Of a stretch of DNA of 64,000 nt, positions 630-54,153 are shown one piece after another. Under the pieces are notes generated by a model. The model saw nothing but the letters and a program-made list of their open reading frames with translations, searched no databases and was not told the origin of the DNA. Origin of the DNA: Chitinophagales bacterium (lineage in GTDB: Bacteria; Bacteroidota; Bacteroidia; Chitinophagales; Saprospiraceae); contig JAAFIM010000007.1 in the NCBI GenBank assembly GCA_013297745.1, positions 747-64,746 of the forward strand, in the 5' to 3' direction. A program made the translations under genes and the position numbers. Within the stretch, counting starts at the first letter, position 1; the number at the start of each line of letters is the position of its first letter.

Positions 630-1580
630 CTAATAAAACCAACTTCCGTTCAAACTCAACAGGCTAAAAAATTTAGGACGGCGTATTTTCTGCTTTTTGT
701 CGTGCAAATAACTTTTATTATCGCGGTCTAACATCGGAATATGGGGATTTTTCCCCTCTGGGTCGTCGCCCCAATTGGCAGGAATGAGCATATTATCGTG
801 AATAAACTTATTCTGCATCGCATTGCGCACCTGTTCCGCGTCTATACCTATATCAAAATTAGCTTGTTGGAAATAGGGCAGGGCTTGTTCTACCCCCAAA
901 GTAACCGAACCCATAGATTTATCCCCCAAATGCACATTATTCATATCCATATACCCAAAGCGCGCGGGGAAATTGCTATCGCGCACCCAATTACTGCCCT
1001 CTCCGTAAGGATTGCCCGTGTAAGAAACGTGTTTGAGCAGTAGCCTTGTTTGTGGGGTTATATAATAAGACAAAGCCACCGCACCCGTTCTGTATCGGTC
1101 TTGAGCTATAAAACATAAAAAATCGTTCTCCAGCATAAATTGGAACTTGTTAGCCTGAAAAGACAACGAGCCCGCCCTTTGCTTTGTACCTTGATTGTCC
1201 CAATACCAGATATACCCATAACCAGCCGAATAGCGTTTGGTGGTTTGGTTGCTCATCTCGTTCACAAAAATTTGCCTTGCAGTATCCCGCGCGCCCCAAC
1301 TCACTACAGCTCCGATGCGCGTTTGCACCTCCCAAGCGGATTGATTAGCACCGATAGAGTAGAAATTTTTATAAATAGCCACTTGTGGGTTGAGTTGTGC
1401 AAAATCGTAACCCATAAACCCCTTCAGGATTAGCCCCAAGCGGTTTTGGTGCGTGCCAAATGTGAAAGAAACTCCAGCTTGTCCTCCCACAAAAAAACGG
1501 TTTTGATTATAAAAGGTTAATTGTGCGCACAAAAAAGGGGCGGATAAGCCCCAAAAAATTATCAATAAAAGAATTTTCAT
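630..1580 (-). CDS. Hypothetical secreted/outer-membrane protein with signal peptide (possible beta-barrel)
   Basis: 316-aa ORF. The N-terminus MKILLLIIFWGLSAPFLCAQ looks like a signal peptide. Composition is aromatic/Gly-rich, like OM beta-barrel proteins. No confident family assignment. Confidence 0.55.
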   Translation of the reverse strand: MKILLLIIFWGLSAPFLCAQLTFYNQNRFFVGGQAGVSFTFGTHQNRLGLILKGFMGYDFAQLNPQVAIYKNFYSIGANQSAWEVQTRIGAVVSWGARDTARQIFVNEMSNQTTKRYSAGYGYIWYWDNQGTKQRAGSLSFQANKFQFMLENDFLCFIAQDRYRTGAVALSYYITPQTRLLLKHVSYTGNPYGEGSNWVRDSNFPARFGYMDMNNVHLGDKSMGSVTLGVEQALPYFQQANFDIGIDAEQVRNAMQNKFIHDNMLIPANWGDDPEGKNPHIPMLDRDNKSYLHDKKQKIRRPKFFSLLSLNGSWFY

Positions 1581-1612
1581 AAAAAATATAAAATGATATA
1601 GCCAAAAAAATG

Positions 1613-1922
1613 AAGCTGTTTAGTAAGAAATTTTTTACATTTATTTTCAATTAAGAAAAACAACAGTTTACGTCTTTTAAGCAACAGACTAAAGTCTGTT
1701 GTAATCGTTTTTTGTTCTTCAACGGGTTAAAACCCGTTGGTATTGATTGATAAAACTATAAAACGCGCGGGGCTTTAGCCCCAAAAGCGCGAAAAAATCC
1801 TAAATCTCAATTGTGCTGGGACTTTCGCTTACGCGCAGCTTGATGCAGCTTTGCTGCCTCTTCGGTTTTTCCCGCACAATACAGAGAAATTAAAAGATAA
1901 AAAAATCATACTAAACAACTTC
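1613..1922 (+). mobile_element. MITE-like repeat family 2, copy a (13-bp TIR AAGYTGTTTAGTA; serial hairpins)
   Basis: The 5' end is aagctgtttagta and the 3' end is catactaaacaacttc (its inverse). Internal palindromes are aacagactaaagtctgtt, aacgggttaaaacccgtt and ggggctttagcccc. Near-identical copies lie at 4610..4874 and, inverted, at 10233..10496. This copy carries an extra ~55 bp internal segment. Confidence 0.75.
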
Positions 1923-1927
1923 AAATG

Positions 1928-3037
1928 TTAATCTCGGCGCAAAGTGGGCTTATTTCTCCTTTGCAACAAACCTTTTACCCTTATCTGGGTGCTGTAGTTT
2001 TGCAAATCGGCTATAGTATCGGGAACTTTCAGCAGTTTGTGCTGCACTTCATCTACAGTAAGTTTGTGAAAATAGTTAGAATCTAACATAATCGTATCTT
2101 TTGCCGCTTGGCAGTTGTCAAATAATTCTATAGGACAACTTTCAAACTCGTAAAAATCATTATTTTGAACAATAAATTTGCAGCGTTTGGCAAACTCACA
2201 GGACAGGGCAAGGTGGGTTTTATTATTCTTAAATATGTTATTTTTCAACACAATCGTGTTTCGTTTGGTGGTTTTATAAAGGGTAAAAGCGGCATTATTA
2301 GCATTGATAAAAGTATTGTTTTCAATCGTAGCCACACCACCGCCCGTCATCCATATCATCAACCCAGAGTGAGAGCCGCGCGAAAGTGCGTTTTTTACGA
2401 TATTGTGGTTGAAAATTATAGAACCACCAATCAATAACAGGGTATAATCGCTAATTTGAGAATGGCTAAATGTAAGTTGGGAGGTGATGCGCACGTGCAG
2501 AGGGCGATAACATTGGCGAATGTGTATGTTTTTGGCTATTACTCGCGCTTGTTTTTCGGTTTGGATGGCGGTTTGGCAGTCTATAATTTCACAATGCTGC
2601 AATTTTATGTTTCTGTTTTCAGCTTGTATCAAATGGATAGGATTCCATTTTTTGCCCCTAAATACGGTGTGTTCAAATATATTCATAGCTGTATCCGTAA
2701 AAATTGGGTTGTCGTGGGCTACCACAGCGCGGCGAAAAAATAAACCTTGCCATTGATGCCCGTTGAAACCCTCAAAAATTATCTTTTTCTTCGCAGTACC
2801 TTTGGCGATAATCTGCCCTTCTATTTGCATTTTTACCTCACTTGAGAATAACACCCGCACACCAGCTTCTATATTCAATACGGTATTGGGGGCTATAAAT
2901 AAATCGTTGGCTATAATATAAGGACTTTTTTGCCGCGTCCAAGTTTGGTTGTCGCTTATAGGCTCGCTAATGTAGGTTTGTGCGTGTATTAAACTAAATG
3001 TGGTCAAAAATAAGCAAGTAAGTAATTGTATATTCAT
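1928..3037 (-). CDS. Secreted right-handed beta-helix (pectin-lyase-fold-like) repeat protein, hypothetical
   Basis: Signal peptide MNIQLLTCLFLTTFSLIHAQ. Periodic N/G/I-rich repeats (NNTFINANNAAF, NNIFKNN) are typical of parallel beta-helix proteins. Confidence 0.5.
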   Translation of the reverse strand: MNIQLLTCLFLTTFSLIHAQTYISEPISDNQTWTRQKSPYIIANDLFIAPNTVLNIEAGVRVLFSSEVKMQIEGQIIAKGTAKKKIIFEGFNGHQWQGLFFRRAVVAHDNPIFTDTAMNIFEHTVFRGKKWNPIHLIQAENRNIKLQHCEIIDCQTAIQTEKQARVIAKNIHIRQCYRPLHVRITSQLTFSHSQISDYTLLLIGGSIIFNHNIVKNALSRGSHSGLMIWMTGGGVATIENNTFINANNAAFTLYKTTKRNTIVLKNNIFKNNKTHLALSCEFAKRCKFIVQNNDFYEFESCPIELFDNCQAAKDTIMLDSNYFHKLTVDEVQHKLLKVPDTIADLQNYSTQIRVKGLLQRRNKPTLRRD

Positions 3038-3992: not shown

Positions 3993-4607
3993 ATGGTACG
4001 ATTTGTATATTTTGCGCTGCTTTTGTTTGTATCTGCTTGCGCTGCGGATAATCCTAACGCTCAATTTATCGCATCAACCCCCAAAGTAACGGGGCGGGTG
4101 ATAGAAGTGGCTTTGTTTGAGTATGATAGCACGGAAATAATCATACACAAAAGCGATATTTTAAATTATTACTTTGTATTAGAAACGTTTAATCAAACGC
4201 CCGAACCTATAACACTCTGTAATCCTAATCTATTGAAAGAAGGGCAACATCCTTATCCCAACGATTTTTTTCTAAAACGTTGTCGTGTGGGTGTTGAAGA
4301 CGCTTGTATAGATTATATAGTAGGCAATACTATAATTATTCCCCCTTTTAGGAAGCGTTTAGATACCGTGCTTGTGGGTGGATATGTTACGCCTGCTCCT
4401 GGTATGGCTGATTATTATGCTGATATTGAATGGCAAATGGAACATATTAATGAGTATAAAAAAGGCGATTTGATTTGGATATATTCGCCCCGTCCTACGC
4501 CATATTATCAAGATACCATTTTTTACCCTTTTGCCAAAGAGGTAAAATATAGCAAACATTGGAACGGTTTGGACTATTGGCCAGCGGGTTGGCAACGTTC
4601 TATATAA
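3993..4607 (+). CDS. Hypothetical lipoprotein
   Basis: N-terminus MVRFVYFALLLFVSAC is lipobox-like. No recognisable catalytic motif. Confidence 0.5.
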   Translation: MVRFVYFALLLFVSACAADNPNAQFIASTPKVTGRVIEVALFEYDSTEIIIHKSDILNYYFVLETFNQTPEPITLCNPNLLKEGQHPYPNDFFLKRCRVGVEDACIDYIVGNTIIIPPFRKRLDTVLVGGYVTPAPGMADYYADIEWQMEHINEYKKGDLIWIYSPRPTPYYQDTIFYPFAKEVKYSKHWNGLDYWPAGWQRSI

Positions 4608-4609
4608 AG

Positions 4610-4874
4610 AAGTTGTTTAGTAAGAATTTTTCTACATTTTCAATTTAAAAAAATAACCATTTGTGTATTTTAAGCAACAGACTAAAGTCTGTTGTAATCG
4701 TTTTTTTGTCTCTCAACGGGTTAAAACCCGTTGGTATTGATTGATAAAACTGTATAACGCGTGGGACTTTAGTCCCAAAAGCGCGAAAAAATCCTAAATC
4801 TCAATTGTGCTGGGACTTTAGTCCCGCACCATACAGAGAAATTAAAAGATAAAAAAAGCATACTAAACAACTTC
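4610..4874 (+). mobile_element. MITE-like repeat family 2, copy b
   Basis: Starts 3 bp after the stop of 3993..4607. It has the same TIRs and hairpins as 1613..1922. Confidence 0.75.
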
Positions 4875-4930
4875 AAAGATAAAATTCAATAAAGACGAAT
4901 TGCAACTGCCGCAATTCGTCTTATTTTTTG

Positions 4931-7435
4931 CTAATACGGGTCTATATCCACCAGCACCCGCAGCCCTTTATAAGTGCTATTATTCTGTATTTGCTCTTGA
5001 AGGCTAACAATAAGTTGCTTGGTCGCTTGCAAAGTCGCGCTATCTTTGGTTAGTTTTAATAAAATATCCATTAGAAAATACTCGCGCACTCTGGAAATAG
5101 CGGGTACGGCAGGGCCTAAAACCCTATCTCCAAGCTGTACTTTCAACGATTGGGCAAAAAACACAGCAGCCGATTGTACAATTTCTTCCCGTTTATGCTT
5201 AAATTGTATGCCTATCAACTTGCTAAAAGGCGGATAACCAAAATTTTGCCGTTCTGCCAACTCGCGCTGCAAAAATTGTTCAAAATCATTCTCTTTCAAC
5301 TCCCACAATACTGGATGTTCTGTGTTGTAGGTTTGTATAAATACTTTACCGTTTTTCTTTTTGCGCCCTGCGCGCCCTGCTACTTGAGTGAGTAGTTGAT
5401 AAGCGCGTTCTGAAGCGCGGAAATCGGGAAACTGTAGCATTTGGTCGGCAGAAATAACCCCCACCAAACCCACATTATCAAAATCCAAACCTTTTGTAAC
5501 CATTTGCGTACCGATTAAAATCTGCACTTCGCGCTTTTCAAACGCTTGGATGATTTTATCCGCGCCCGTTTTGCCCTTGACTGTGTCTAAATCCATCCGC
5601 GCCGTTTGTATATCGGGAAAGTATATTTTAATATCATCTTCTATCTTTTCCGTACCAAAACCTTGAGGATTTAACGAAGCTGAACCGCAAGCTGGGCAAT
5701 GTTTGGGCAAAAATTGGGTTAATCCGCAATAATGGCAGTGCAAATCGCGGCTGTCGTGGTGATAAGTCATTGATACATCGCAACGGGTGCATTTTCCCGC
5801 CCAGCCGCAACTTTTGCATTTGTACGCGGGCGCATATCCGCGCCGATTTTGGAATAAAATAACCTGCTCTTCTTTGGCAAAACAATCTGTAATCGCTTGC
5901 AACAGTTGAGGGCTAAAATGGCTTTTCATCAACTTGCGCTTGGTTTCTTCTTTTATATCCACCAACAAAATATCGGGCAAAGCCAACCCCCCAAAGCGGT
6001 TTTTCATCTCTACCAACCCGTACTTTTTTTGTTGAACGTTGTAATAAGTTTCTACTGAAGGCGTAGCCGTTCCCAGCAAGGTTTTGCATTGGTACAAATG
6101 CGCCATATACACAGCCGTATCGCGCGCATTATAACGCGGATTGGGGTCAGTTTGTTTGTAACTGGGGTCGTGTTCTTCATCTACCAAGATTAAACCCAAA
6201 TTTTGAAAAGGTAAGAATAGAGCCGAGCGCGCGCCCAACACCACAGGGCAACCGTTCAAAACCTTATTCCAAATTTCTACCCGCTCAAAACTGTTAAACT
6301 TGGAATGATAAGTCAATACTTTATCCCCAAAATGCTTTTGCAACCGCCCCACCATCTGTGCCGTAAGCCCTATTTCTGGCAAAAGGTATAAAACTTGTTT
6401 GCCCGCATCTATAGTTTTTTGTATCAATTCCACAAACACTTGCGTTTTTCCACTCCCCGTTACCCCGTGCAATAAAATAGCGTTTTTAGATAAAAATTGA
6501 TTTTCTATATCGGACAAAGCCGCTTTTTGTATATCAGAAAGTGCATAATTGCCCACTCCTTCGTGTTCATAATCTATCAAACGGCTTATTTCTATCTCAA
6601 AAAGGTTAAAAATTCCCTTTTTTGCCATCGCATTCAATACGCTGCTATCTACGTTGGCTTTTTCATAAATCTGTTTTCGGCTCAATTGGCGGGTTTGTTC
6701 TGCTTTGCTCAATTGTATAAACGCCATCAACGCTTCAGTCTGTCGCCCAGAGCGGCTTATTTCCGCGAATACATCAGACAACAAATGGGGCTGGCTTTGG
6801 TAGGGTTCTGCCAATTCCACCATAGACAACATTTTAGGCTTATATTTTTCTTTCAATTCGTCCAATATCGTAATCAATTTTTTTTCCAACATCTTTTTCA
6901 ACAGCGGCCGCACTTGATAATTGGGGCAAAGTTTTTGGATTTCATCTATAGTCAATTCGCTATTTTTCATCAAACTTTCCATTATAAAATTCTCGCGCGG
7001 GTTGAGATTTGCCAAAAACTCTTGTTGGTCTTCGTATTGTTCGTGCAATATAATTTTAGTTTCTGATTCCAACTTAAACCCAGCAGGCAAAGCCGCTTGC
7101 ATCACTTCCCCCATCGTGCAGAGATAATAATTCGCTATCCAATTCCACAACGCAAACTGTTTGTCTGTAACAATAGCTTCTTCATCCAATACGGATAAAA
7201 TAGGTTTGGTTTTATAATCTGTAGGCGCTTGTTCAAACAGTTCATAAATCAACCCCGCGTATAATTTTGTACCTCTAAACGGCACTTCCACCCGCACGCC
7301 CTTTTTCACCAAAGGCGCAAGATGCACAGGCACGCTGTAAGTGTATAATTTAGGCAAAGGCAAGGGCAAAATAACCGTTGCAAATAATAATTCTTTGCTC
7401 TGAATTTCGTTCTCTTCAAATAGTTGAAATAACAT
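4931..7435 (-). CDS. priA: Primosomal protein N' (replication restart helicase PriA)
   Basis: Walker A GVTGSGKT, DEEHD box, C-terminal zinc-binding CxxC...CxxC cluster (CKSCGWAGKCTRC...CHYCG...CPACGS), ~830 aa. Confidence 0.9.
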   Translation of the reverse strand: MLFQLFEENEIQSKELLFATVILPLPLPKLYTYSVPVHLAPLVKKGVRVEVPFRGTKLYAGLIYELFEQAPTDYKTKPILSVLDEEAIVTDKQFALWNWIANYYLCTMGEVMQAALPAGFKLESETKIILHEQYEDQQEFLANLNPRENFIMESLMKNSELTIDEIQKLCPNYQVRPLLKKMLEKKLITILDELKEKYKPKMLSMVELAEPYQSQPHLLSDVFAEISRSGRQTEALMAFIQLSKAEQTRQLSRKQIYEKANVDSSVLNAMAKKGIFNLFEIEISRLIDYEHEGVGNYALSDIQKAALSDIENQFLSKNAILLHGVTGSGKTQVFVELIQKTIDAGKQVLYLLPEIGLTAQMVGRLQKHFGDKVLTYHSKFNSFERVEIWNKVLNGCPVVLGARSALFLPFQNLGLILVDEEHDPSYKQTDPNPRYNARDTAVYMAHLYQCKTLLGTATPSVETYYNVQQKKYGLVEMKNRFGGLALPDILLVDIKEETKRKLMKSHFSPQLLQAITDCFAKEEQVILFQNRRGYAPAYKCKSCGWAGKCTRCDVSMTYHHDSRDLHCHYCGLTQFLPKHCPACGSASLNPQGFGTEKIEDDIKIYFPDIQTARMDLDTVKGKTGADKIIQAFEKREVQILIGTQMVTKGLDFDNVGLVGVISADQMLQFPDFRASERAYQLLTQVAGRAGRKKKNGKVFIQTYNTEHPVLWELKENDFEQFLQRELAERQNFGYPPFSKLIGIQFKHKREEIVQSAAVFFAQSLKVQLGDRVLGPAVPAISRVREYFLMDILLKLTKDSATLQATKQLIVSLQEQIQNNSTYKGLRVLVDIDPY

Positions 7436-7693
7436 TTATTAGTGTATAGTTATTAGTGATTAGTTATTAGTTATCAATGGTTAGTGATAGAAAATAAAGT
7501 TCGTAAGTTTTTTTAAATACTTTTGCAAACTGCGCAAAGCTATAGTAAATGTTTGCAAAGCCAAAAATTTTCCCGCAAGTCCGCCTCCCAATTAAGAAAC
7601 GAAGTTGCGCGTAAGCGAAAGGGACGGGGAGGGCTAACACACTCCAACAAGCAAACCACGCAAAGCTTTTACCGCTACAATTTCCAAACTCCC

Positions 7694-10153: not shown

Positions 10154-10178
10154 AGTTTAGTGGTTAATTATTAATAGT

Positions 10179-10209
10179 TATACAGAATTTAAAAAGTAAG
10201 TGTGTAATA
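10179..10209. repeat. 30-bp motif TAATACAGAATTTAAAAAGNAAGTGTGTAATA (copy 1 of 7; acts as inverted-repeat terminus of composite elements)
   Basis: Other copies lie at 21967..21998 and 26843..26874. Inverted copies lie at 10737..10768, 27102..27132 and 27131..27160. Confidence 0.7.
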
Positions 10210-10232
10210 AGAGCTATTAAGCATTATAATTG

Positions 10233-10496
10233 AAGTTGTTTAGTATGCTTTTTTATCTTTTAATTTCTCTGTATTGTGCGGGACTAAAGTCCCAGCACAA
10301 TTGAGATTTAGGATTTTTTTGCGCTTTTGGGACTAAAGTCCCGCGCGTTATATAGTTTTATCAATCAATACCAACGGGTTTTAACCCGTTGAGAGACAAA
10401 AAAACGATTACAACAGACTTTAGTCTGTTGCTTAAAGTACATAAATGGTTATTTTTTTTAATTAAAAATGTAGAAAAATTCTTACTAAACAACTTT
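10233..10496 (-). mobile_element. MITE-like repeat family 2, copy c (inverted)
   Basis: Reverse complement of copies a/b with the same TIR and the ggactttagtcc, aacgggttttaacccgtt and aacagactttagtctgtt hairpins. Confidence 0.75.
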
Positions 10497-10516
10497 ATTA
10501 TAAAAATAAGCGAGAG

Positions 10517-10672
10517 CGTGGGGTTTTATACCCCACGCGGTAAAGAATCTTATTAGCGTTGGGTTTTACACCCAACGCAAGCAAGAATAAAATTTTATAA
10601 AATTATTTTTGGAGTGTTGGGTGTAAAACCCAACACTTATAAGGTTTATTTTATCTACCGCACGGGGTGTAA
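10517..10672. repeat. Array of four related GC-rich stem-loops (8-bp stems, 7-nt loops)
   Basis: gcgtgggg-ttttata-ccccacgc, gcgttggg-ttttaca-cccaacgc, gtgttggg-tgtaaaa-cccaacac, gcacgggg-tgtaaaa-ccccgtgc. Stems differ but keep pairing, and loops are conserved or inverted. Confidence 0.7.
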
Positions 10673-10851
10673 AACCCCGTGCTATTGTAAAAATCTACAC
10701 TCTTGTAACTCCAATATTTTAAATAATTTATGATGCTATTACACACTCACTTTTTAAATTCAGTATTAGTTGTTGATAATGAATTGATTATAAGTAAAAA
10801 AAGCGAAACTCCTAAAGGTTGGGAATTTCGCTTTTTGTGTGTATGCTATTG

Positions 10852-11235
10852 TTATTCTCGGCTCATCATATTCACTTTTCCGTTGAGTAATGCGCCATTT
10901 TCTACCTGTAGAAATTTAGTTTCTATGTCTCCCTGAACTTGTGCCGAGCGAAAGAGCGCACAGCCGTTGCGGGCTAATATATTGCCGATAATTTTGCCCT
11001 CGCAGACCAATTCCAAACAATCAATATTGCCGTGAATTTGTGCTTGTGGGGATAAAATTAGCCGTCCAGCACAGAAAACATTCCCATTGATTTGCCCATC
11101 AAGGCGCATATTGGCTTCTGTAACTTTAACGCTGCCGTCAATGATTGTACCTGTAGCAATTTGACAAACAGCTTGCACAGGGCTTTGCTCTTGCACCCAG
11201 TCGGTGGGGGCTTCTTTGGTTTTTTTACCGAACAT
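10852..11235 (-). CDS. Bactofilin-family cytoskeletal protein (DUF583)
   Basis: Beta-helical G-x-I/V-x-G periodicity (TGTIIDGSVKV...GQINGNVF...GNIDCLELVCEGKIIGNI). Confidence 0.7.
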   Translation of the reverse strand: MFGKKTKEAPTDWVQEQSPVQAVCQIATGTIIDGSVKVTEANMRLDGQINGNVFCAGRLILSPQAQIHGNIDCLELVCEGKIIGNILARNGCALFRSAQVQGDIETKFLQVENGALLNGKVNMMSRE

Positions 11236-11241
11236 AACTTT

Positions 11242-12153
11242 TTATCCGTTGAAAATTTTAATATAATAACCTTTTGAGTTGTAAGCGCGCAAAAATTTGG
11301 ATTTGCCGCAAGCAGTAGAACAAACCCCTTGTAGTTCGCCCCCGCAGTTTTCGCACTGCACAAAATGCTCGTTGCAGTGGGGATTGGCGCAATTGACCAT
11401 ACGGGTAGAATGTGTGCCGCAGGTTTTGCAGCGGGTGATAACTGTAGGATTTACCGTATTGATAGGCACTTGCACGCGATTGTCAAACACATAACAGTTG
11501 CCCTCAAAATCCTTGCCGCCTACCATTTTACCGTAGTTAATAATCCCCCCGTGTAGTTGATAAACTTCCCCAAAACCCTGTTCGCGCAGATAAGCGGATG
11601 CTTTTTCGCACTTGATACCGCCCGTGCAATAGGTGAGGATTTTTTTTCCTTTGTACTGTTCCAATTCGTCCAAATGCTCAGGCAAGTTGCGAAAATTATC
11701 AATATCCAAAGTTACGGCGTTTTTGAACTTTCCCAATTGGTGTTCATAATTAGAACGCACATCCAAAACCACCACATCTTCTTGGTCTTTCATAGCCAAA
11801 AATTCTGCTGGGCTTAAATGATTATCTACATCACTATCGGCAGGATTTACCGCCAAAGGCAGGTCAGAATGCACAATTTCAGTTTTATAGCGGACGTGCA
11901 TTTTAACAAAAGACGGCTCATTGACTTCATCAATTTTATAATGAATATCTGCAAAGCGTTCATCTTGAGCCAGCGTCTGCATATAAGTTTGGCATTGGGC
12001 TGCTGTGCCTGAAACGGTGCCGTTGATGCCTTCATCAGCTATCAATACGCGCCCTAAAAGCCCTAATTGTTTGCAAAATTGGAGATGCTGTTCGGCAAGC
12101 TCGGCTGCGTTTGCAATACGCACGTACTTGTAGTACAACAGGGTTTGGTACAT
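11242..12153 (-). CDS. trhO: tRNA uridine(34) hydroxylase, rhodanese-domain protein (YceA/UPF0176)
   Basis: LLYYKYV N-terminus, rhodanese active site YCTGGIKCEKASAYL, C-terminal Cys-rich tail. Colinear with E. coli YceA from memory. Confidence 0.85.
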   Translation of the reverse strand: MYQTLLYYKYVRIANAAELAEQHLQFCKQLGLLGRVLIADEGINGTVSGTAAQCQTYMQTLAQDERFADIHYKIDEVNEPSFVKMHVRYKTEIVHSDLPLAVNPADSDVDNHLSPAEFLAMKDQEDVVVLDVRSNYEHQLGKFKNAVTLDIDNFRNLPEHLDELEQYKGKKILTYCTGGIKCEKASAYLREQGFGEVYQLHGGIINYGKMVGGKDFEGNCYVFDNRVQVPINTVNPTVITRCKTCGTHSTRMVNCANPHCNEHFVQCENCGGELQGVCSTACGKSKFLRAYNSKGYYIKIFNG

Positions 12154-12163
12154 AGAATTTTTT

Positions 12164-13084
12164 TTATGGTTTGAATTTTTTGTCTATAAATGCGCGCTCT
12201 TCATCAGTTAATTGTTCGCGGGTCATACTCTCTTTTCCGCCATTTTCATTTGGTTTTTTGTTTTTTCCTCCTGTGATATGAAACCCGTGGAAAGTAAAAG
12301 AATTGACATCATTTAGCTCTTTACTGTTGTACTTAAAAATAAGATAACAGCCTTTTTCTTCGTCCCAAACTGCTAGAGTGGAATCCTTTATTTGTATAGC
12401 TTTTTGTAGTAGGTTATTAGTAATTTTTTCTTTTTCTTCGCTTTCATTATATAAAAGTGGGCTAATCCATTGGCCTTTCTCTTGCCTTGCAAATTCAGCA
12501 CGATGGTGTTTATCACAATACTCAAAAACTCTAGGCTGGCGATTCTTTTTTAACCAATTTCGTAAATCACTTTCGTTACCAACTATATCAATTTTAACTA
12601 AAATAGGAAGATAAATAGATTCACGTAAAAAAGCTTCTTCATCTATTATAATAAGTTTACGAGCAAGTTTAGTATTATGTTCCCAAAATAAAAATTTATA
12701 AAAATTCGGTATGTTAGGCAGATAATATTCTATAAAATTAATGACTGCACTAGACCCAGAAAATTCAACGCAATACGCATTTTTATTTTGTTGTTCGTAC
12801 TCAAAATAAGTATGATTTTTTGAAATAGGAGTATCTATCCGTTCCATTTTTTGGAAAAAACTACTCACGCTGCTTGATAGCAGTTTAATATTTTTTGCTT
12901 TTAAATCTGCCATAATTTTTTCAACTACGTGATTTAAAATAATAATTTTACAATTTTTTTCAAAAAAAAGCCAGCGAAAAGTATCAAAAATTAGTTCTCT
13001 TGTTGACGTGTCCGTAAAAAGGTATGTATCATTTTTATCAAAGCCAGCGAAAACGATTAATTTTGTTTGTTCCATAATGAGCAT
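12164..13084 (-). CDS. Hypothetical protein, third gene of DUF262/ATPase cassette
   Basis: 306-aa ORF starting 6 nt after the ATPase stop. No recognisable motif. AT-rich. Confidence 0.5.
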   Translation of the reverse strand: MLIMEQTKLIVFAGFDKNDTYLFTDTSTRELIFDTFRWLFFEKNCKIIILNHVVEKIMADLKAKNIKLLSSSVSSFFQKMERIDTPISKNHTYFEYEQQNKNAYCVEFSGSSAVINFIEYYLPNIPNFYKFLFWEHNTKLARKLIIIDEEAFLRESIYLPILVKIDIVGNESDLRNWLKKNRQPRVFEYCDKHHRAEFARQEKGQWISPLLYNESEEKEKITNNLLQKAIQIKDSTLAVWDEEKGCYLIFKYNSKELNDVNSFTFHGFHITGGKNKKPNENGGKESMTREQLTDEERAFIDKKFKP

Positions 13085-13090
13085 ACTTTT

Positions 13091-14248
13091 TTAAAATCCC
13101 ACTAAAAATTCCCTATCAATATCCATTTGGTCAAAAAAACCACTTGGTGCATCTTTTATCCAATATCCTTCCACTATCGGCACGTGAATAGTTCTTGCTT
13201 CTTGGCTATTTTCATCGCGGTCTATGTAATAAATGGCCACATTATCGGGGCTTATGCCTTTTTTATCTTCAGCAAATTTTTTGCAAGCAACCAAAATACC
13301 ATTGATGAGGTGGTCGCTGTGGGTTTCTACCACCACTTGTACGCCCGCCTGTGCAGCGAGAGCTATTAATTCGGCAAGTTTAGCTTGTCCGCTGGGGTGG
13401 ATATGCGCCTCAGGATTTTCTAATAAAACCAAACCATCTTTGGGCGTAGCCAATAGAGCTAATACCACAGGCAAAGCATAAGAAATACCAAAGCCCACGT
13501 TTTGGGGTTTGTATTCAAGCGATGTAATAAGCCCTGCGGTTCTAAATCTAAAATTAAGTTTCAAAAAATCTTTATTATCAATAATGACCGCTTCAACACC
13601 TTCACTTATTTCTCCAAGCCAAGCGTTTACGTTTGAGGATAAATGTAAGTCATCTGCTTTTTCGTGTTTTAGTTGTATGTTAGCAAGTTCTTTGTTACCG
13701 TTAATACTTAAAACGTGTATTGCGTATTCTGCTTTTCCTTGTTTGTGAGAAATTTGACCTTTCTTTTCAGCAATTCGCCAACTTCTTGAATGGGTTTCTT
13801 TTGGTCCAATATGTTCAGTGGCAATATATTGAAATGCTAGACTTTCACTAAATAAAGCCGCTTTGATAGGAGCAAGAATTTTAGAATCTACACTTAATTC
13901 TAAATTATCTACGCTTTTGTCTACTTCATTATTGGGCAGCACAGGGAATACAAATTTGACATAATGATTTATATTGCTATCAAATTGTAAATCAAAAGCG
14001 ATAAAATTATCTTCAGCATATTCGCACAAAGCATCTTTAGCGTTGCCGACATTTACCAAGTCTTCGTTAAGCACCAAACCTTCTTGGAAAGAAGAACTTT
14101 TTAAATAAGATTGCCGCAATAATAATAAACTTTGTATAATGGAAGATTTACCTGCTCCATTTTTGCCTGTAACAACAGTCAAAGGTTTGCAAGTTAGTTC
14201 TGTATTGAGGTGTGATTTGTAATTTTGAATTTTTAGTTTTGTTATCAT
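13091..14248 (-). CDS. ABC-type/AAA_21-family ATPase (DUF3696-like C-terminus)
   Basis: Walker A VTGKNGAGKSS, Walker B/D-loop VLLENPEAHIHP, H-loop VETHSDHL. Its ATG overlaps the upstream stop in an ATGA quartet. Confidence 0.75.
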   Translation of the reverse strand: MITKLKIQNYKSHLNTELTCKPLTVVTGKNGAGKSSIIQSLLLLRQSYLKSSSFQEGLVLNEDLVNVGNAKDALCEYAEDNFIAFDLQFDSNINHYVKFVFPVLPNNEVDKSVDNLELSVDSKILAPIKAALFSESLAFQYIATEHIGPKETHSRSWRIAEKKGQISHKQGKAEYAIHVLSINGNKELANIQLKHEKADDLHLSSNVNAWLGEISEGVEAVIIDNKDFLKLNFRFRTAGLITSLEYKPQNVGFGISYALPVVLALLATPKDGLVLLENPEAHIHPSGQAKLAELIALAAQAGVQVVVETHSDHLINGILVACKKFAEDKKGISPDNVAIYYIDRDENSQEARTIHVPIVEGYWIKDAPSGFFDQMDIDREFLVGF

Positions 14249-15624
14249 AGTGCAAGTGTTTTGTCAATAATTTCTTTAATTTTTTCGTATCTTATTAGCA
14301 CATTTTGCTTGTGTCCTGTGCCTGTAGTGATGCTGTACGTAAAGTTTTTAGAACCTTGATTATCATTAAATAACTTTACAAACAAAAGATTAAAGTCTTG
14401 TTTGTATTGAACAATTTTTTGCTGTTCTTCTTTACTCAAACGCGCAAAAGAAACAGTTAGTACTTCAAATAAAGCCTTATTGATTGGATTGCGTTTTTTC
14501 TCTGAAATATCAAATCTTTTTCTAAAAGCATAATCCCCAAAAATTTTGCTAAGCGTGTTTATTGTTTCTTCAAACTTTTTTTCGATTTCCAATAAAGTAT
14601 TTTTGTCTGTATTAGTAATTTTTTTCATAACCTTATTTAAAAAACCGTCCATATCTGCTTGGTATTCGCTGTGTGGCAACAAATAAAAAGCTAGAAAACG
14701 AGTTATAAAATCGCAGTCTTCCATACGTTCGGAAGCAATAGCGTTATTGGTAATATCCAAAAAATGCGCGGAACTTGCTAATTTATTTATAAAAGTTGAT
14801 GCTTCTCTTGAATTAAGCGCGTGGCGAATTTCTTGGTCAGTGAGTAATAACCCACTAGTATTAATTCGTTTAAAAAGGTTAAATTTAACGACATCAGGCG
14901 AACTTGCGCTAACAATATAAGCAGTAATTGAAAACTCCTCTATCCTTGCGCGAAGGCTAGGACTTAGTTCCTTAAATGTTTTGTTTTTTAATCCTTGTGC
15001 ATTAAGATACTCTAAACCTTGCAATTTTAAAAAATCTTTATTTTTTCCATCTCCTTTTCCTAAAATAAAATGACTTATGGCGCTTATTCGCTGAAGCCCA
15101 TCTACCACTTGATAAACCCCATTTTCAATTTCCACAAAATAAAAAGCTGGTAATGGAAATGATAATAAAATTGATTCAATAAGTTGACTTTTTTGAGAAA
15201 AATTCCAAAGATGTGCTTTGCGTTGATAGGGCGGATTTAAGTCTATCAGTTTACTTTTTATTCTTGATATAATGTTAGAGATTACCATAGGTTTAACATC
15301 TATTCTAACATCTTTAGGATTTAGAAAAACATTTCCTACATTATCACTTTCATAGTTTTCTAGAAATTCTATTTCTTTTTCTACTTTTTGGCTTTTGAAA
15401 GAATAACAATTTGACTTACCTATTTTAATACAATCTATACTTTCGTCATATACTCTCATTTCTGGATTGGTTAAAGTGCTCAATGCAGAAGACACAGAGG
15501 CTTGCGGAGTTTTAGTTTCAAATATAAAATAATTCTTTTCCACAATGTAATCGTGGATTTCTTTAGCAGTAGCTGGTCTGCCTATTTCCTCCATTGCTAT
15601 TTTGCACGCTTCAATAAGTGTCAT
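14245..15624 (-). CDS. DUF262 (ParB/Srx-like, DGxQR) domain protein with N-terminal HTH (HARE-HTH-like)
   Basis: VVDGLQRISAI is a DGQQR-type motif. The N-terminal ~70 aa are a winged-helix-like module. 459 aa. Confidence 0.7.
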   Translation of the reverse strand: MTLIEACKIAMEEIGRPATAKEIHDYIVEKNYFIFETKTPQASVSSALSTLTNPEMRVYDESIDCIKIGKSNCYSFKSQKVEKEIEFLENYESDNVGNVFLNPKDVRIDVKPMVISNIISRIKSKLIDLNPPYQRKAHLWNFSQKSQLIESILLSFPLPAFYFVEIENGVYQVVDGLQRISAISHFILGKGDGKNKDFLKLQGLEYLNAQGLKNKTFKELSPSLRARIEEFSITAYIVSASSPDVVKFNLFKRINTSGLLLTDQEIRHALNSREASTFINKLASSAHFLDITNNAIASERMEDCDFITRFLAFYLLPHSEYQADMDGFLNKVMKKITNTDKNTLLEIEKKFEETINTLSKIFGDYAFRKRFDISEKKRNPINKALFEVLTVSFARLSKEEQQKIVQYKQDFNLLFVKLFNDNQGSKNFTYSITTGTGHKQNVLIRYEKIKEIIDKTLAL

Positions 15625-18896: not shown

Positions 18897-19610
18897 TTAT
18901 CTGTGTACAGAAGTGGGAAAGTATGGGCTAAAATCGTCGTTCCAACTTGGTTTTGATTTTACATACCAAATTTTAAACGCTAAAAATTGGCTTTCAGGTT
19001 GCAATTCTGCTTTTATTCTGTCTGCGTAGATTGCTTGTTCAGGCTTATTTTCGTTGTCGTAAAAATCATCTTTAAGTTGGGTCAAATCTGCCATTGCTTC
19101 TACAAGCAGTTTCCGCAAAGCGGCCGCTTTCATCCTGCTAGCGGCTGGAGGTTTATAAGTTGAGTCTATTTTACAATCTGCATTATAAATCCGAGAAAGT
19201 AATTTTACTGTGTTTAAAGTAGTTGGGTCAGTTTCTGTGGTAGAAATATCTACTTTTTCCTTTGGATTTTTAAAGGCTGTTAGGAGAAAAGAAATTTTTT
19301 CGGCTATCAAAATTTGTGAGTTTGTACAATCTAAAATATCGCTAAACGATTCACCGCTTTTCCGCGAGTTGCAATAACTACAAGCGTACATTAGATTATT
19401 CCAATTAAATTTTTTATGAGGGTTAGTATAACCGTTTGTTGTGTGATTTTGATAATGTTCAACTATAAAATCTGTATCAATTTTTTTCTCGCATAAGTAG
19501 CATTTATGATGAAAATCTGCTTGCAATCGATTCAAAACATCTTCATCGTCATACTTTTTTTGCGCTGCTAAAGAAGTGGGCGCAGGTTGGGATTTATGAA
19601 AGTTTATCAT
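18897..19610 (-). CDS. HNH endonuclease (PtuB-like)
   Basis: HHKCYLCEKK...EHY...NLMYACSYCNSRK is an HNH/His-Me finger signature. It overlaps the upstream ATPase gene by 17 nt. Confidence 0.65.
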   Translation of the reverse strand: MINFHKSQPAPTSLAAQKKYDDEDVLNRLQADFHHKCYLCEKKIDTDFIVEHYQNHTTNGYTNPHKKFNWNNLMYACSYCNSRKSGESFSDILDCTNSQILIAEKISFLLTAFKNPKEKVDISTTETDPTTLNTVKLLSRIYNADCKIDSTYKPPAASRMKAAALRKLLVEAMADLTQLKDDFYDNENKPEQAIYADRIKAELQPESQFLAFKIWYVKSKPSWNDDFSPYFPTSVHR

Positions 19611-21087
19611 AACTGCTAATTTTTGCTTGATACAATTCCTTAGTTTCGGCTAATAAAATTTTAATCTCAGCAGCGCGAAATTTTGGCATTTCTTGGAGTT
19701 GATTGCGCAATTTTTGCAGCATTTGTATATCTTTTTTCGTGGGTTGTTCTAAGCTCAACAAATTTTCATAGTCTGCTTTTATTTGGTTCAGAAAGTTAGA
19801 AAATTTATCCACTTCAAAATGCGTTTCCACTATCGCTTCAGCAGGAAATCCAACTAATGGCTCATTTATAAGGTTATGATTTTCCAAATCATAAACTACT
19901 GCGTTATCTATAGAGGATAACACATAAGGCGAATGGCTGCTTACAATAAACTGTATATTTGGGAAAAAACTGGTTAAAAATGGTAAAATTTGCTTTTGCA
20001 GTGCAATGTGTAGATGAGTTTCTATTTCATCGATTATTACTATTCCCTGTATATTCTCAGGTTCAGCATACCACATTATTTTTTTAAATAAGTTATCTAT
20101 ACCTTCGCTATGAGAAGATACGGGAATAGACCGTCTTCTATTTTGGTGTGTAGATATTGTTGTTTTTATTTTTTCAATTCTAAGCAAAATTTCTGATAGA
20201 ATATAAACAATGGACTTAAACCCGTCTGACAACTGTTGTAAGCCTACAGGCTCGCGGCCTGGTAACTTTACATCAAAATAGTAATTGCGAGAATCGAATG
20301 TAAATTTAAATTCATTTCTTTCAATTTCTGAAATTTCAAAAATACTGCACAAGTAACTTTCAAAGATGTTGAACCAATTTTCTACTTCCGCTACTTCATC
20401 TTCATTTTTATTTAGTGAAGAGAAGGCTTGCTGTATGCGTTTTTGCATCAAATAGTGGATAAATTGAGAGTTTGCTTGTTCTCTAATACCTTGCTCTTCA
20501 AATTTGAATGCCTGAGTTGATTTTTCTGTTTGAGGTTTTAGAAAATCAAAATCACGTTGTGCTGGAATATAAGCAGTTACAAAAGGAACTTCGTAATAAT
20601 CAATAAATCCGTAAACTAATTGGTCAGTTGCGGAAAAATTGATTTTTCTTAGCCAATTTTCACTATTTTTACCTAACAAACTGACACTACCAAGTCGCTG
20701 TCGAGCCCCAAACCGAGCCCCAAAATCAATGGCTTGTTGTTCAAACTCATTATCAGAAATATGATTTTCTAATAGATTGATGTCGTCTAAAGAAAGATTA
20801 GAGTTTTCTTTAGCTTTTAGTAAGCTTTGGTGACTTATTTTTAGCTGGGCTTTAAGAGAAGATGTGTGAATTTGGAAAGTGGCACTTGAATATTCATTAG
20901 TTAAGTCTTGCAATTTATCGCGTATTTCTTCCAACACGGAACTCTTACCACTCCCATTTTTTCCTGTGAGGATTAGGTGGCGGCGAATATCTTTACCAAT
21001 TTCTATATGAATACGGCGTAGGTGGCGGCATTTTAGTATAAAAATATCAGTTAGAAAGTACTGCTCATAAAGTCCGTCCTTTTCCAT
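19594..21087 (-). CDS. AAA_21/ABC-type ATPase (PtuA-like)
   Basis: Walker A LTGKNGSGKSS. Walker B/H-loop VIIDEIETHLH...SSHSP. 497 aa. Visibly AT-richer than the adjacent Fe-S gene. Confidence 0.7.
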   Translation of the reverse strand: MEKDGLYEQYFLTDIFILKCRHLRRIHIEIGKDIRRHLILTGKNGSGKSSVLEEIRDKLQDLTNEYSSATFQIHTSSLKAQLKISHQSLLKAKENSNLSLDDINLLENHISDNEFEQQAIDFGARFGARQRLGSVSLLGKNSENWLRKINFSATDQLVYGFIDYYEVPFVTAYIPAQRDFDFLKPQTEKSTQAFKFEEQGIREQANSQFIHYLMQKRIQQAFSSLNKNEDEVAEVENWFNIFESYLCSIFEISEIERNEFKFTFDSRNYYFDVKLPGREPVGLQQLSDGFKSIVYILSEILLRIEKIKTTISTHQNRRRSIPVSSHSEGIDNLFKKIMWYAEPENIQGIVIIDEIETHLHIALQKQILPFLTSFFPNIQFIVSSHSPYVLSSIDNAVVYDLENHNLINEPLVGFPAEAIVETHFEVDKFSNFLNQIKADYENLLSLEQPTKKDIQMLQKLRNQLQEMPKFRAAEIKILLAETKELYQAKISSYDKLS

Positions 21088-21881: not shown

Positions 21882-22028
21882 AATTATTAGTTGTTAGTGG
21901 TTAGTTGTTGATTAGCAATAATTTGTATGATTTTTGAATAAAGAGTAAATTTTTGTTCTGCGGAAATAATACAGAATTTTAAAAATAAGTGTGTAATAGT
22001 GGTATAAATTATTAAAGACATCAATTAT

Positions 22029-22252
22029 AAAAACTTGTGTTTTGAAATTTTTTTAACGGCTTACGCCTAAAAATTTTTTTTCTTCGTACTTTTTGCAGGC
22101 GCAAAAAGTACCAAAAACGCCCTGTTTCTATAAACTTGTTCGCTCCGCTTGCTAAAGCTGCGCTCCGTCTCACTTCAGACAGTATAGAAACTCAACGGAT
22201 TGGTGTAGTTACGCGCTTCGCGCGATTTTTTACTTTATTTTTGTCTACTTAC
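22029..22252. repeat. Structured repeat family 1, copy B (inverted relative to copy A)
   Basis: Reverse complement of copy A. The terminal gtctacTTAc supplies the stop codon of CDS 22249..22470. Confidence 0.8.
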
Positions 22253-22470
22253 ATATAGTCTTTTAAATCGTCCAAAGGTTCGTTAAAATCATCAGGAATA
22301 CTAAATCCCTTGCCTGCTAAACTGCCAAGTTTTACCCCTTTAGGAGGTTTTGTGTCTTGCTTGGCATCAGGTTTGGCTTCTTGATATTTGACTTTCAAAC
22401 GCTGCAATAGATTGACTATCAGTTGATAATCTTCATCATTATTAAATTCTAAAATTAAATTTTTTTGCAT
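22249..22470 (-). CDS. DUF2281-like small protein (putative antitoxin-type family)
   Basis: The C-terminal FSIPDDFNEPLDDLKDYM motif is characteristic of DUF2281, recalled from memory. Confidence 0.45.
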   Translation of the reverse strand: MQKNLILEFNNDEDYQLIVNLLQRLKVKYQEAKPDAKQDTKPPKGVKLGSLAGKGFSIPDDFNEPLDDLKDYM

Positions 22471-53939: not shown

Positions 53940-54014
53940 GGGCGGTTAGCTCAGCTGGTCTAGAGCATCTGCCTTACAAGCAGAGGGTCACAGGTTCGAA
54001 CCCTGTACTGCCCA
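53940..54014 (+). tRNA. tRNA-Val (anticodon UAC); no encoded CCA
   Basis: A cloverleaf can be folded by hand: acceptor GGGCGGT/ACTGCCC, D-arm GCTC...GAGC, anticodon loop CTTACAA, T-arm ACAGG-TTCGAAC-CCTGT. Confidence 0.9.
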
Positions 54015-54078: not shown

Positions 54079-54153
54079 GGGCGGTTAGCTCAGCTGGTCT
54101 AGAGCATCTGCCTTACAAGCAGAGGGTCACAGGTTCGAACCCTGTACTGCCCA
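54079..54153 (+). tRNA. tRNA-Val (anticodon UAC), identical duplicate; CCA encoded
   Basis: Identical 75-nt sequence to the first copy, followed by CCA. Confidence 0.9.

Follow-up and report, generated by a model that had tools for sequence, protein, structure and literature searches.

A stretch of 64,000 nucleotides from a Chitinophagales bacterium (contig JAAFIM010000007.1), hereafter the window, carries three copies of a short repeat, family 2, among genes for Ntox23-domain, beta-helix, thioredoxin-like, PriA, caspase-domain and bactofilin proteins. T9SS sorting domains are encoded elsewhere in the window. The PriA homologues point to a Saprospiraceae-like member of the Bacteroidota, the closest named relatives, Aureispira and Saprospira, having only 56–59% PriA identity. 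On the evidence presented below, family 2 is very probably a non-autonomous DNA transposon of about 265 bp, that is, a MITE (miniature inverted-repeat transposable element), which has been active recently.

Copy a lies between the stop of the beta-helix gene (1928-3037, minus strand) and the start of the Ntox23 gene (630-1580, minus strand), copy b between the convergent 204-aa gene (3993-4607, plus strand) and priA (4931-7435, minus strand), and copy c upstream of the start of the caspase-like gene. All three are therefore intergenic, as the first-pass annotation of this DNA had reported. The two insertions that stand in a genic context, a and b, are 0–1 nt from a TAA stop codon; copy b starts 1–2 nt past the stop codon at 4605-4607, and not 3 bp after it as had been described. 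The beta-helix protein has a 100%-identical NCBI protein record (P0121). Of five proteins of the window that were looked up by exact sequence, the bactofilin alone was on record, in the Logan contig L053 (run SRR9948925, 3395 bp). This contig is 99.94% identical to positions 10701-14095 and ends within a larger repeat that surrounds copy c; that part of the window is thus confirmed independently, and the organism is present in a public sequencing run.

Structure of the repeat family

The regions were read and aligned, and the window proves to contain one repeat family whose three copies can be aligned from end to end. They lie where the first-pass annotation had put them (1613..1922, 4610..4874 and, inverted, 10233..10496), and their coordinates are given in table 1 with a 14-bp terminal inverted repeat included. 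Ungapped identity is 91.7% between copies a and b, 92.0% between a and c and 96.6% between b and c, and the flanks of the three copies are mutually unrelated. Total length ranges from 265 to 311 bp, which is below about 500 bp. Copy a differs in length by an internal insert (see below) and by a 4-nt indel near the left end. The G+C content of the element is 31–36%, compared with 39.6% for the window. A low-stringency BLAST search with the element detected no partial or degenerate further copies in the window.

The terminal inverted repeat is GAAGTTGTTTAGTA (the family ends may also be written GAAGYTGTTTAGTA). Copy b has it without a mismatch, and copies a and c with one each: the left repeat of copy a reads GAAGCTGTTTAGTA, and that of copy c begins with A instead of G. 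We assign the terminal G to the element because all three copies finish with ...CAACTTC and copies a and b start with G, which makes the inverted repeat 14 bp long. The inverted repeats were recognized correctly in the first-pass annotation, and the length of 13 bp given there is one base too short, since the conserved C of the right end pairs with the G of the left end (GAAG...) in copies a and b. With at most one mismatch, the 13-mer AAGTTGTTTAGTA is confined to the copy ends, all six of which have it. All its other matches in the window carry two mismatches; those at 30708, 33608, 37894 and 38610 fall within or next to ordinary genes and were discarded. No convincing homology between the left and right halves of the element was detected outside the inverted repeat.

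The copies contain no open reading frame (ORF) above 55 aa, and the longest one, of 55 aa, extends into the flank. A six-frame query with the stop-free peptides of the element gave no homologue among 5.8 billion proteins. The same query was also considered as a route to other copies, through spurious ORF calls, and returned no match in this respect either.

Insertion sites in related genomes

Two relatives provide the sites for comparison. The first, L003, is a 20-kb JGI metagenome contig found through its 95%-identical PriA. It has the same gene order as positions 1-18.7 kb of the window, with about 87–95% nucleotide identity, from which we conclude that it represents a sister species. The second, L054, encodes a beta-helix protein 87% identical to that of the window.

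Site a is empty in L003, where tagccAAAAAAATG is directly followed by TTAATCgcgg, the target AAAAAAATG-TTAATC being present in single copy. In the window, the element (AAGCTG...CAACTTCAAATG) stands between AAAAAAATG and TTAATC, and the 315 extra bases correspond to the element plus an extra AAATG. By BLAST, the two flanking matches overlap by 5 nt in L003 (16027-16031), leaving exactly 1613-1922 of the window unmatched. The same site is also empty in L054 (gcAAAAAATGaTTAATCtcgg); as it is empty in both relatives, the insertion is derived in the lineage of the window. Site b is empty in L003, where tctatatAAAG is directly followed by ATAAAATTCaataaagacgaattg (that is, TATAAAG by ATAAAATTC). The window has 269 extra bases at this position, with the element (AAGTTG...CAACTTCAAAG) between TATAAAG and ATAAAATTC.

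Each copy is flanked by short A-rich direct repeats (AAAT, AAA and AAT; table 1), which gain one base at sites a and b when the terminal G is assigned to the target, so that the duplications measure 3–5 bp overall. These repeats differ from site to site and, at sites a and b, equal the bases that the empty sites have in single copy; they are therefore true target-site duplications and not part of the element. As the insertions are missing at the corresponding positions in the sister species, they took place after the split; to judge from their 96.6% identity, copies b and c are the youngest. Site polymorphism, which the first-pass annotation had named as the test of mobility, is thus observed at the level of sister species, at site a (L003 and L054) and at site b (L003).

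Copy c lies within another inverted-repeat element, which is unrelated to family 2, and is consequently a nested insertion. Between the caspase-like and bactofilin genes, the window has a surplus of 588 bp over L003, in which the flanks overlap by 3 bp (TTA). Neither the inverted repeats of family 2 nor those of the outer element are found in L003 (18.5 kb) or L054. The outer element contains four more hairpins (10516-10682) of the form NNNNGGGT-loop-ACCCNNNN (GGGT-loop-ACCC), again in a 2 + 2 opposed arrangement. Its inverted repeat of about 30 bp, TACWGAATTTAAAAAGTRAGTGTGTAATA, also bounds a different interior at 26846-27158. That interior is G+C-rich and common to repeats at 356-576, 22029-22256 (region 21970-22256) and 55730-56003, and the unit ends with two tandem right-end repeats, at 27113-27128 and 27143-27158.

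The outer repeat is inserted 27 bp upstream of the ATG of the caspase-like gene, inside an ACTAA-rich leader. Leaders of this kind, poor in G and rich in ACTAA or TAACTAA, directly precede start codons at 7436-7490 (minus strand), 10154-10180 (minus strand), 340-361, 612-633 and 57590-57631; the one before priA reads ...TAACTAATAACTAATCACTAATAACTATACACTAATAA-ATG. Copies b and c form a 254-nt inverted repeat with 96% identity (4603-4856 and 10249-10502) around a 5.4-kb segment with priA and the caspase-like gene. It is a possible substrate for inversion; comparison of the gene order with L003 reveals that no inversion of this segment has occurred.

Prokaryotic MITEs are less than 500 bp long, A/T-rich and intergenic, with inverted repeats of 4–30 bp, stable stem–loops and direct repeats flanking the young copies, and are mobilized in trans by insertion sequences (PMC10969869). 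Family 2 falls under this definition: it has inverted repeats and target-site duplications, its sites are empty in relatives, it encodes no protein and one copy is nested in another mobile repeat. The first-pass annotation had read it as a MITE from its shape alone, and had noticed neither the target-site duplications nor the nesting of copy c; the empty sites, the duplications and the missing coding capacity now support that reading. Such an element would be moved by a DDE-type transposase, supplied by an insertion sequence elsewhere in the genome, that would recognize the inverted repeats in trans. The enzyme would insert it where A-rich DNA has been cut with a stagger of 3–5 bp, and gap repair would duplicate the target. 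The GA terminus and a duplication of 3–4 bp fit the IS5 family, which is a lead to the possible parent only; the families IS3, IS1380 and IS982, which generate 3–5-bp duplications as well, are other possible parents.

Several observations weigh against this interpretation. A Pfam transposase domain was found in none of the 48 scanned ORFs of at least 100 aa in the window (49 are listed; that at 59810-60163 was left out). No cognate insertion sequence was found, and neither the remainder of the window nor any of 54 retrieved loci contains a further match to the end sequence. Exact-word scans for other copies (a 20-mer in GTDB and an 18-mer in JGI data) returned chance matches only. Three copies are known, all inside 9 kb of the 64-kb window, and dispersal throughout the genome is not demonstrable from the window. 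The target duplication is one base longer at site a than at site b, whichever way the G is assigned. Finally, the empty sites come from sister species with about 87–95% nucleotide identity and not from strains of the same species. The clustering within 9 kb may reflect local hopping or a high density of the element throughout the genome.

The matches discarded in these searches were the following. The internal 20-mer GGGTTAAAACCCGTTGGTAT gave two hits among the species genomes of GTDB, both due to chance: they match part of one hairpin and nothing else. The 18-mer CCGTTGGTATTGATTGAT retrieved 48 metagenome loci, and all 48 were spurious when compared with the element by BLAST. Absence from metagenomes is weak evidence because short-read assemblies break in repeats. 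A distant BLAST search against plasmids gave a single A/T-rich chance match, from Clostridium, and a literature search for the end sequence returned one unrelated paper on a chicken primer.

Table 1. Positions of family 2, its target-site duplications and hairpins, and the associated sequences. Coordinates are those of the window.
Feature	Position	Strand	Description
Copy a	1612-1922	+	311 bp; most diverged copy, about 92% identical to b and c
Copy b	4609-4874	+	266 bp; perfect 14-bp inverted repeats at 4609-4622 and 4861-4874
Copy c	10232-10496	-	265 bp; inverted; 96.6% identical to b
Target duplication, copy a, left	1608-1611		AAAT; AAATG if the G at 1612 is target
Target duplication, copy a, right	1923-1926		AAAT, then G at 1927; 1 nt from the beta-helix stop codon (1928-1930)
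Target duplication, copy b	left 4606-4608, right 4875-4877		AAA (AAAG with the G at 4609); left one overlaps TAA at 4605-4607
Direct repeat, copy c	10229-10231 and 10497-10499	+	ATT/ATT (AAT in element orientation); by direct repeat alone
Hairpin H1	b 4674-4695; a 1681-1702; c 10410-10431	+ in b	9-bp stem, loop TAAA, then AATCGTTTTTTTG; terminator-like on top strand
Hairpin H2	b 4713-4734; a 1719-1740; c 10371-10392	+ in b	9-bp stem, loop TAAA
Hairpin H3	b 4758-4785; a 1764-1791; c 10320-10347	+ in b	inner stem GGGAC/GTCCC, outer stem CGCG/CGCG, loop TTTA
Hairpin H4	b 4805-4831; a 1811-1879 (including insert); c 10274-10300	+ in b	TTGTGC.GGGAC-TTTA-GTCCCGCACCA
Insert specific to copy a	1826-1869	+	44 nt, G+C-rich; replaces 2 apical bases of the H4 loop, H4 stem kept
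Outer element hosting copy c	10181-10765		585 bp; inverted repeats of about 30 bp, TACWGAATTTAAAAAGTRAGTGTGTAATA; not family 2

Internal hairpins and alternative readings

The interior of the element consists of four hairpins in a fixed order, H1 to H4, and the four palindromes that had been noted at first sight are present as described in all copies. H1 is GCAACAGAC-TAAA-GTCTGTTGT and H2 is TCAACGGGT-TAAA-ACCCGTTGG, and these two have in common the frame CAAC-NNNN-TAAA-NNNN-GTTG. H3 is CGCGYGGGAC-TTTA-GTCCC..GCGCG and H4 is TTGTGC.GGGAC-TTTA-GTCCCGCACAA; they share the core GGGAC-TTTA-GTCCC and have different outer stems. Read on the top strand, the loops of H1 and H2 are TAAA; for H3 and H4 this is true of the bottom strand, so that the four hairpins form two opposed pairs. 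Sites of the type GGGACTTTAGTCCC have nine matches in the window, compared with 0.18 expected, every one of them within the copies. Folded as single-stranded DNA, copy b reaches -48.9 kcal/mol (z = -7.3 relative to shuffled sequences) and copy a -54.7 kcal/mol (z = -5.5). The window as a whole contains 33 perfect hairpins with a stem of at least 8 bp, compared with 5.4 in mononucleotide shuffles, and most of them are in family 2 and the neighbouring repeats.

Copy a carries at the apex of H4 a G+C-rich insert that the first-pass annotation had seen and estimated at about 55 bp; it measures 44 nt and takes the place of 2 loop bases, for a net gain of 42. The 20-mer at its left edge (CTTTCGCTTACGCGCARCTT, 1822-1841; also given as CTTTCGCTTACGCGCAGCTT) recurs with one change at 7602-7621 on the minus strand, in the unrelated spacer between priA and the caspase-like gene. 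The window thus has two matches, compared with 0.04 expected, and the 20-mer may be a fragment of another small repeat. The place of the insert at the apex of a loop, with an edge that recurs elsewhere in the window, suggests that there may be another mobile sequence, of very small size, with hairpin loops as its targets.

The four hairpins are most simply seen as passenger structure of a MITE. An excised strand, or any transcript, would fold tightly, and transcription coming from either side would meet hairpin-plus-T-run modules that are predicted to be terminator-like. A consensus scan marked H1 and H2 as terminator-like on the top strand in every copy and, in copy a, H3 on the bottom strand as well. 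The runs of T are displaced or weak: a gap of 5 nt separates H1 from its run, H2 and H4 have weak tails, and most stems are not directly abutted.

One may ask whether the element is a mobile terminator cassette, comparable to SPRITE, i.e. a MITE that is retained or targeted because its opposed pairs of hairpins act as a two-way terminator or insulator past the ends of genes. This reading draws on the result of the consensus scan, on the strand distribution of the TAAA loops and on the position of both genic-context insertions 0–1 nt from a stop codon, and terminator-like MITEs, such as SPRITE, are on record (PMC10969869). However, it is based on two sites, and a preference for A-rich targets beside TAA stops accounts for these positions without any function. 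The T-runs, moreover, stand apart from most of the stems. At the site of copy a, L003 has a 32-bp spacer between genes of the same direction, where a terminator would be harmful and not useful, and copy c is located within another repeat and upstream of a gene start. We consider a terminator cassette unlikely, and its more specific form, in which a mobile terminator working both ways reaches the ends of genes through a target choice placing it within 1–2 bases of the stops, slightly less likely still. If the hairpins did terminate transcription, copy a would show how a repeat can split an operon in nature, here that of the same-direction beta-helix and Ntox23 genes. The element would then rewire operon boundaries, as between these two genes, which are 32 bp apart in the sister species. 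If they do not, it is an ordinary selfish repeat.

The variation among the copies raises the question of whether the hairpins are functional RNA, in which case family 2 would be a family of structured small-RNA genes. In the inner stem of H3, copy a has a paired change from GGGAC/GTCCC to GGGGC/GCCCC that keeps the pairing and that this reading attributes to selection on structure. The stems also vary less than the remainder of the element, with 4 substitutions at about 76 stem positions and 22 at about 189 non-stem positions (our own count). With three sequences, the conservation of the stems and the paired change in H3 are only suggestive, and templated repair within palindromes could give the same pattern; the probability of one paired change among 22 substitutions is about 5–10% by our own estimate.

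A search of the copies with Rfam 15 gave no match at the gathering score, the best sub-threshold scores being 17–23 bits where 61–80 are required (the best, NsiR8, has 23 and requires 61), and tRNAs alone pass the Rfam thresholds in the window. The Bacteroidota -7 promoter motif TAnnTTTG is absent from both strands of all copies; sigma-70-type motifs were also sought inside the element. Furthermore, the copies lie in both orientations relative to the neighbouring genes, and a small-RNA family would account neither for the inverted repeats and target duplications nor for the empty sites. Overall, small-RNA genes appear very improbable.

The string of palindromes of 20–28 nt, together with the fold of the whole element (z = -7.3), also brings to mind a REP-like palindrome cluster, or a palindrome-associated element whose single-stranded form is moved not by a DDE enzyme but by a RAYT-type or IS200/IS605-type Y1 (HUH) transposase. 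REP/RAYT and IS200/IS605-type elements have no terminal inverted repeats and generate no target duplication, and those of the IS200/IS605 type insert 3' of a fixed tetra- or pentanucleotide. Family 2 possesses both inverted repeats and duplications that differ between sites, and Y1-style movement is excluded on these grounds. In addition, no GTAG or CGTC tag adjoins any of the hairpins H1–H4 in any copy, none of these hairpins occurs alone outside the copies in the window, and no Y1 transposase domain was detected among the scanned ORFs. We give this reading hardly any weight. Least of all is the family likely to be an artefact of assembly or a local segmental duplication, a virtually negligible possibility that the presence of all copies inside 9 kb might suggest: the copies are 3–8% apart, their flanks are unrelated, their insertion junctions can be fixed to the base by comparison with two outgroups, and the independent Logan contig, 99.94% identical over 10701-14095, reaches the neighbouring nested region.

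Surrounding sequences and comparison with known repeats

Other differences between the window and L003 are found near the copies. The spacer between priA and the caspase-like gene (7436-7693) contains a 21-bp tandem array (GGCTTTGCAAACATTTGGTAT). In L003 (9532-10000) the array is far longer, with 469 bp compared with 258 bp, and has been called there as an ORF of 116 aa. A similar 21-bp array is present at 57468-57593. Between priA and the 204-aa gene, L003 (12506-13580) has an extra gene of 311 aa, with no Pfam match, that is absent at the corresponding position of the window (4875-4930). All that the window has there is a perfect hairpin of 31 nt (4892-4922), of the two-way terminator type. 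The indel is unconnected with the insertion of copy b.

Defence-like genes stand beside the repeat-rich stretch (12164-15624 and 19594-21087, both on the minus strand). The first group includes an AAA_15/AAA_21 ATPase with DUF3696 (13091-14248) and a GmrSD_N protein (14245-15624), both conserved in L003; a second AAA_21 ATPase is encoded at 19594-21087 (minus strand). Farther away, the plus strand encodes at 30756-33245 a protein of 829 aa that matches the shoulder domain of the major vault protein (PF11978, E = 1e-29) and, weakly, a vault repeat, which makes it a bacterial relative of the shell protein of eukaryotic vaults. Two near-identical tRNA genes (53940-54014 and 54079-54153), each with an Rfam score of 70.4 bits, are 139 bp apart; over 79 nt, these tandem copies have 99% identity.

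The kind of selfish repeat to which family 2 belongs is ordinary and well known; the family itself had not been described before. It is known so far from this window only, and searches of plasmids, Rfam and the literature yielded no described family related to it by sequence. Its insertions are a record of recent transposition in a lineage of the Bacteroidota about which little is known. Repeats of this type break short-read assemblies, as illustrated by the Logan contig, which ends inside the neighbouring nested repeat, and they can be used as strain markers.

Among insertion sequences, those of the IS5 family resemble family 2 in having ends that start with GA or GG and 3–4-bp duplications in A/T-rich sites. 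No transposase or full-length insertion sequence with family-2 ends was found, which is the difference from that family. Correia elements of Neisseria duplicate the dinucleotide TA. Like these (Correia/NEMIS) and the QMITE of Coxiella (PMC10969869), family 2 is shorter than 500 bp, devoid of ORFs, A/T-rich and intergenic, is bounded by inverted repeats and short target repeats, folds into very stable stem–loops and varies in presence or absence between relatives. It differs from them in its inverted repeat of only 14 bp, in its A-rich duplication of 3–5 bp and in its interior, which is composed of four discrete perfect hairpins in two opposed pairs instead of a single long foldback.

The non-coding SPRITE, RUP and BOX sequences of Streptococcus pneumoniae are small repeats that form clusters and insert into each other; a hairpin resembling a rho-independent terminator is present in SPRITE, and BOX is modular (boxA, boxB and boxC) (PMC10969869). 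The nesting of copy c in another element and the predicted terminator-like character of H1 and H2 are similar features. Family 2, on the other hand, belongs to a different phylum, has no sequence similarity to these repeats and keeps a fixed order of four hairpins, unlike the modular BOX.

The palindromes of REP and BIME sequences, which are mobilized by RAYT, measure 20–40 bp and bear a GTAG or CGTC tag at one end (PMC3733652), are likewise short, intergenic, richer in G+C and alternating in orientation. The palindromes of family 2, by contrast, are untagged, have no solo units in the window and are enclosed by inverted repeats, forming one moving unit with a target duplication. Within the Bacteroidota, a literature search for MITEs turned up the element of Porphyromonas gingivalis alone. 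Its interior is reported to be a minisatellite, that is, a series of tandem repeats (PMC4596501), and it shares with family 2 a structured repetitive interior. By that description the two are distinct, family 2 having an interior of four inverted-repeat hairpins and residing in an unrelated, Saprospiraceae-like host.

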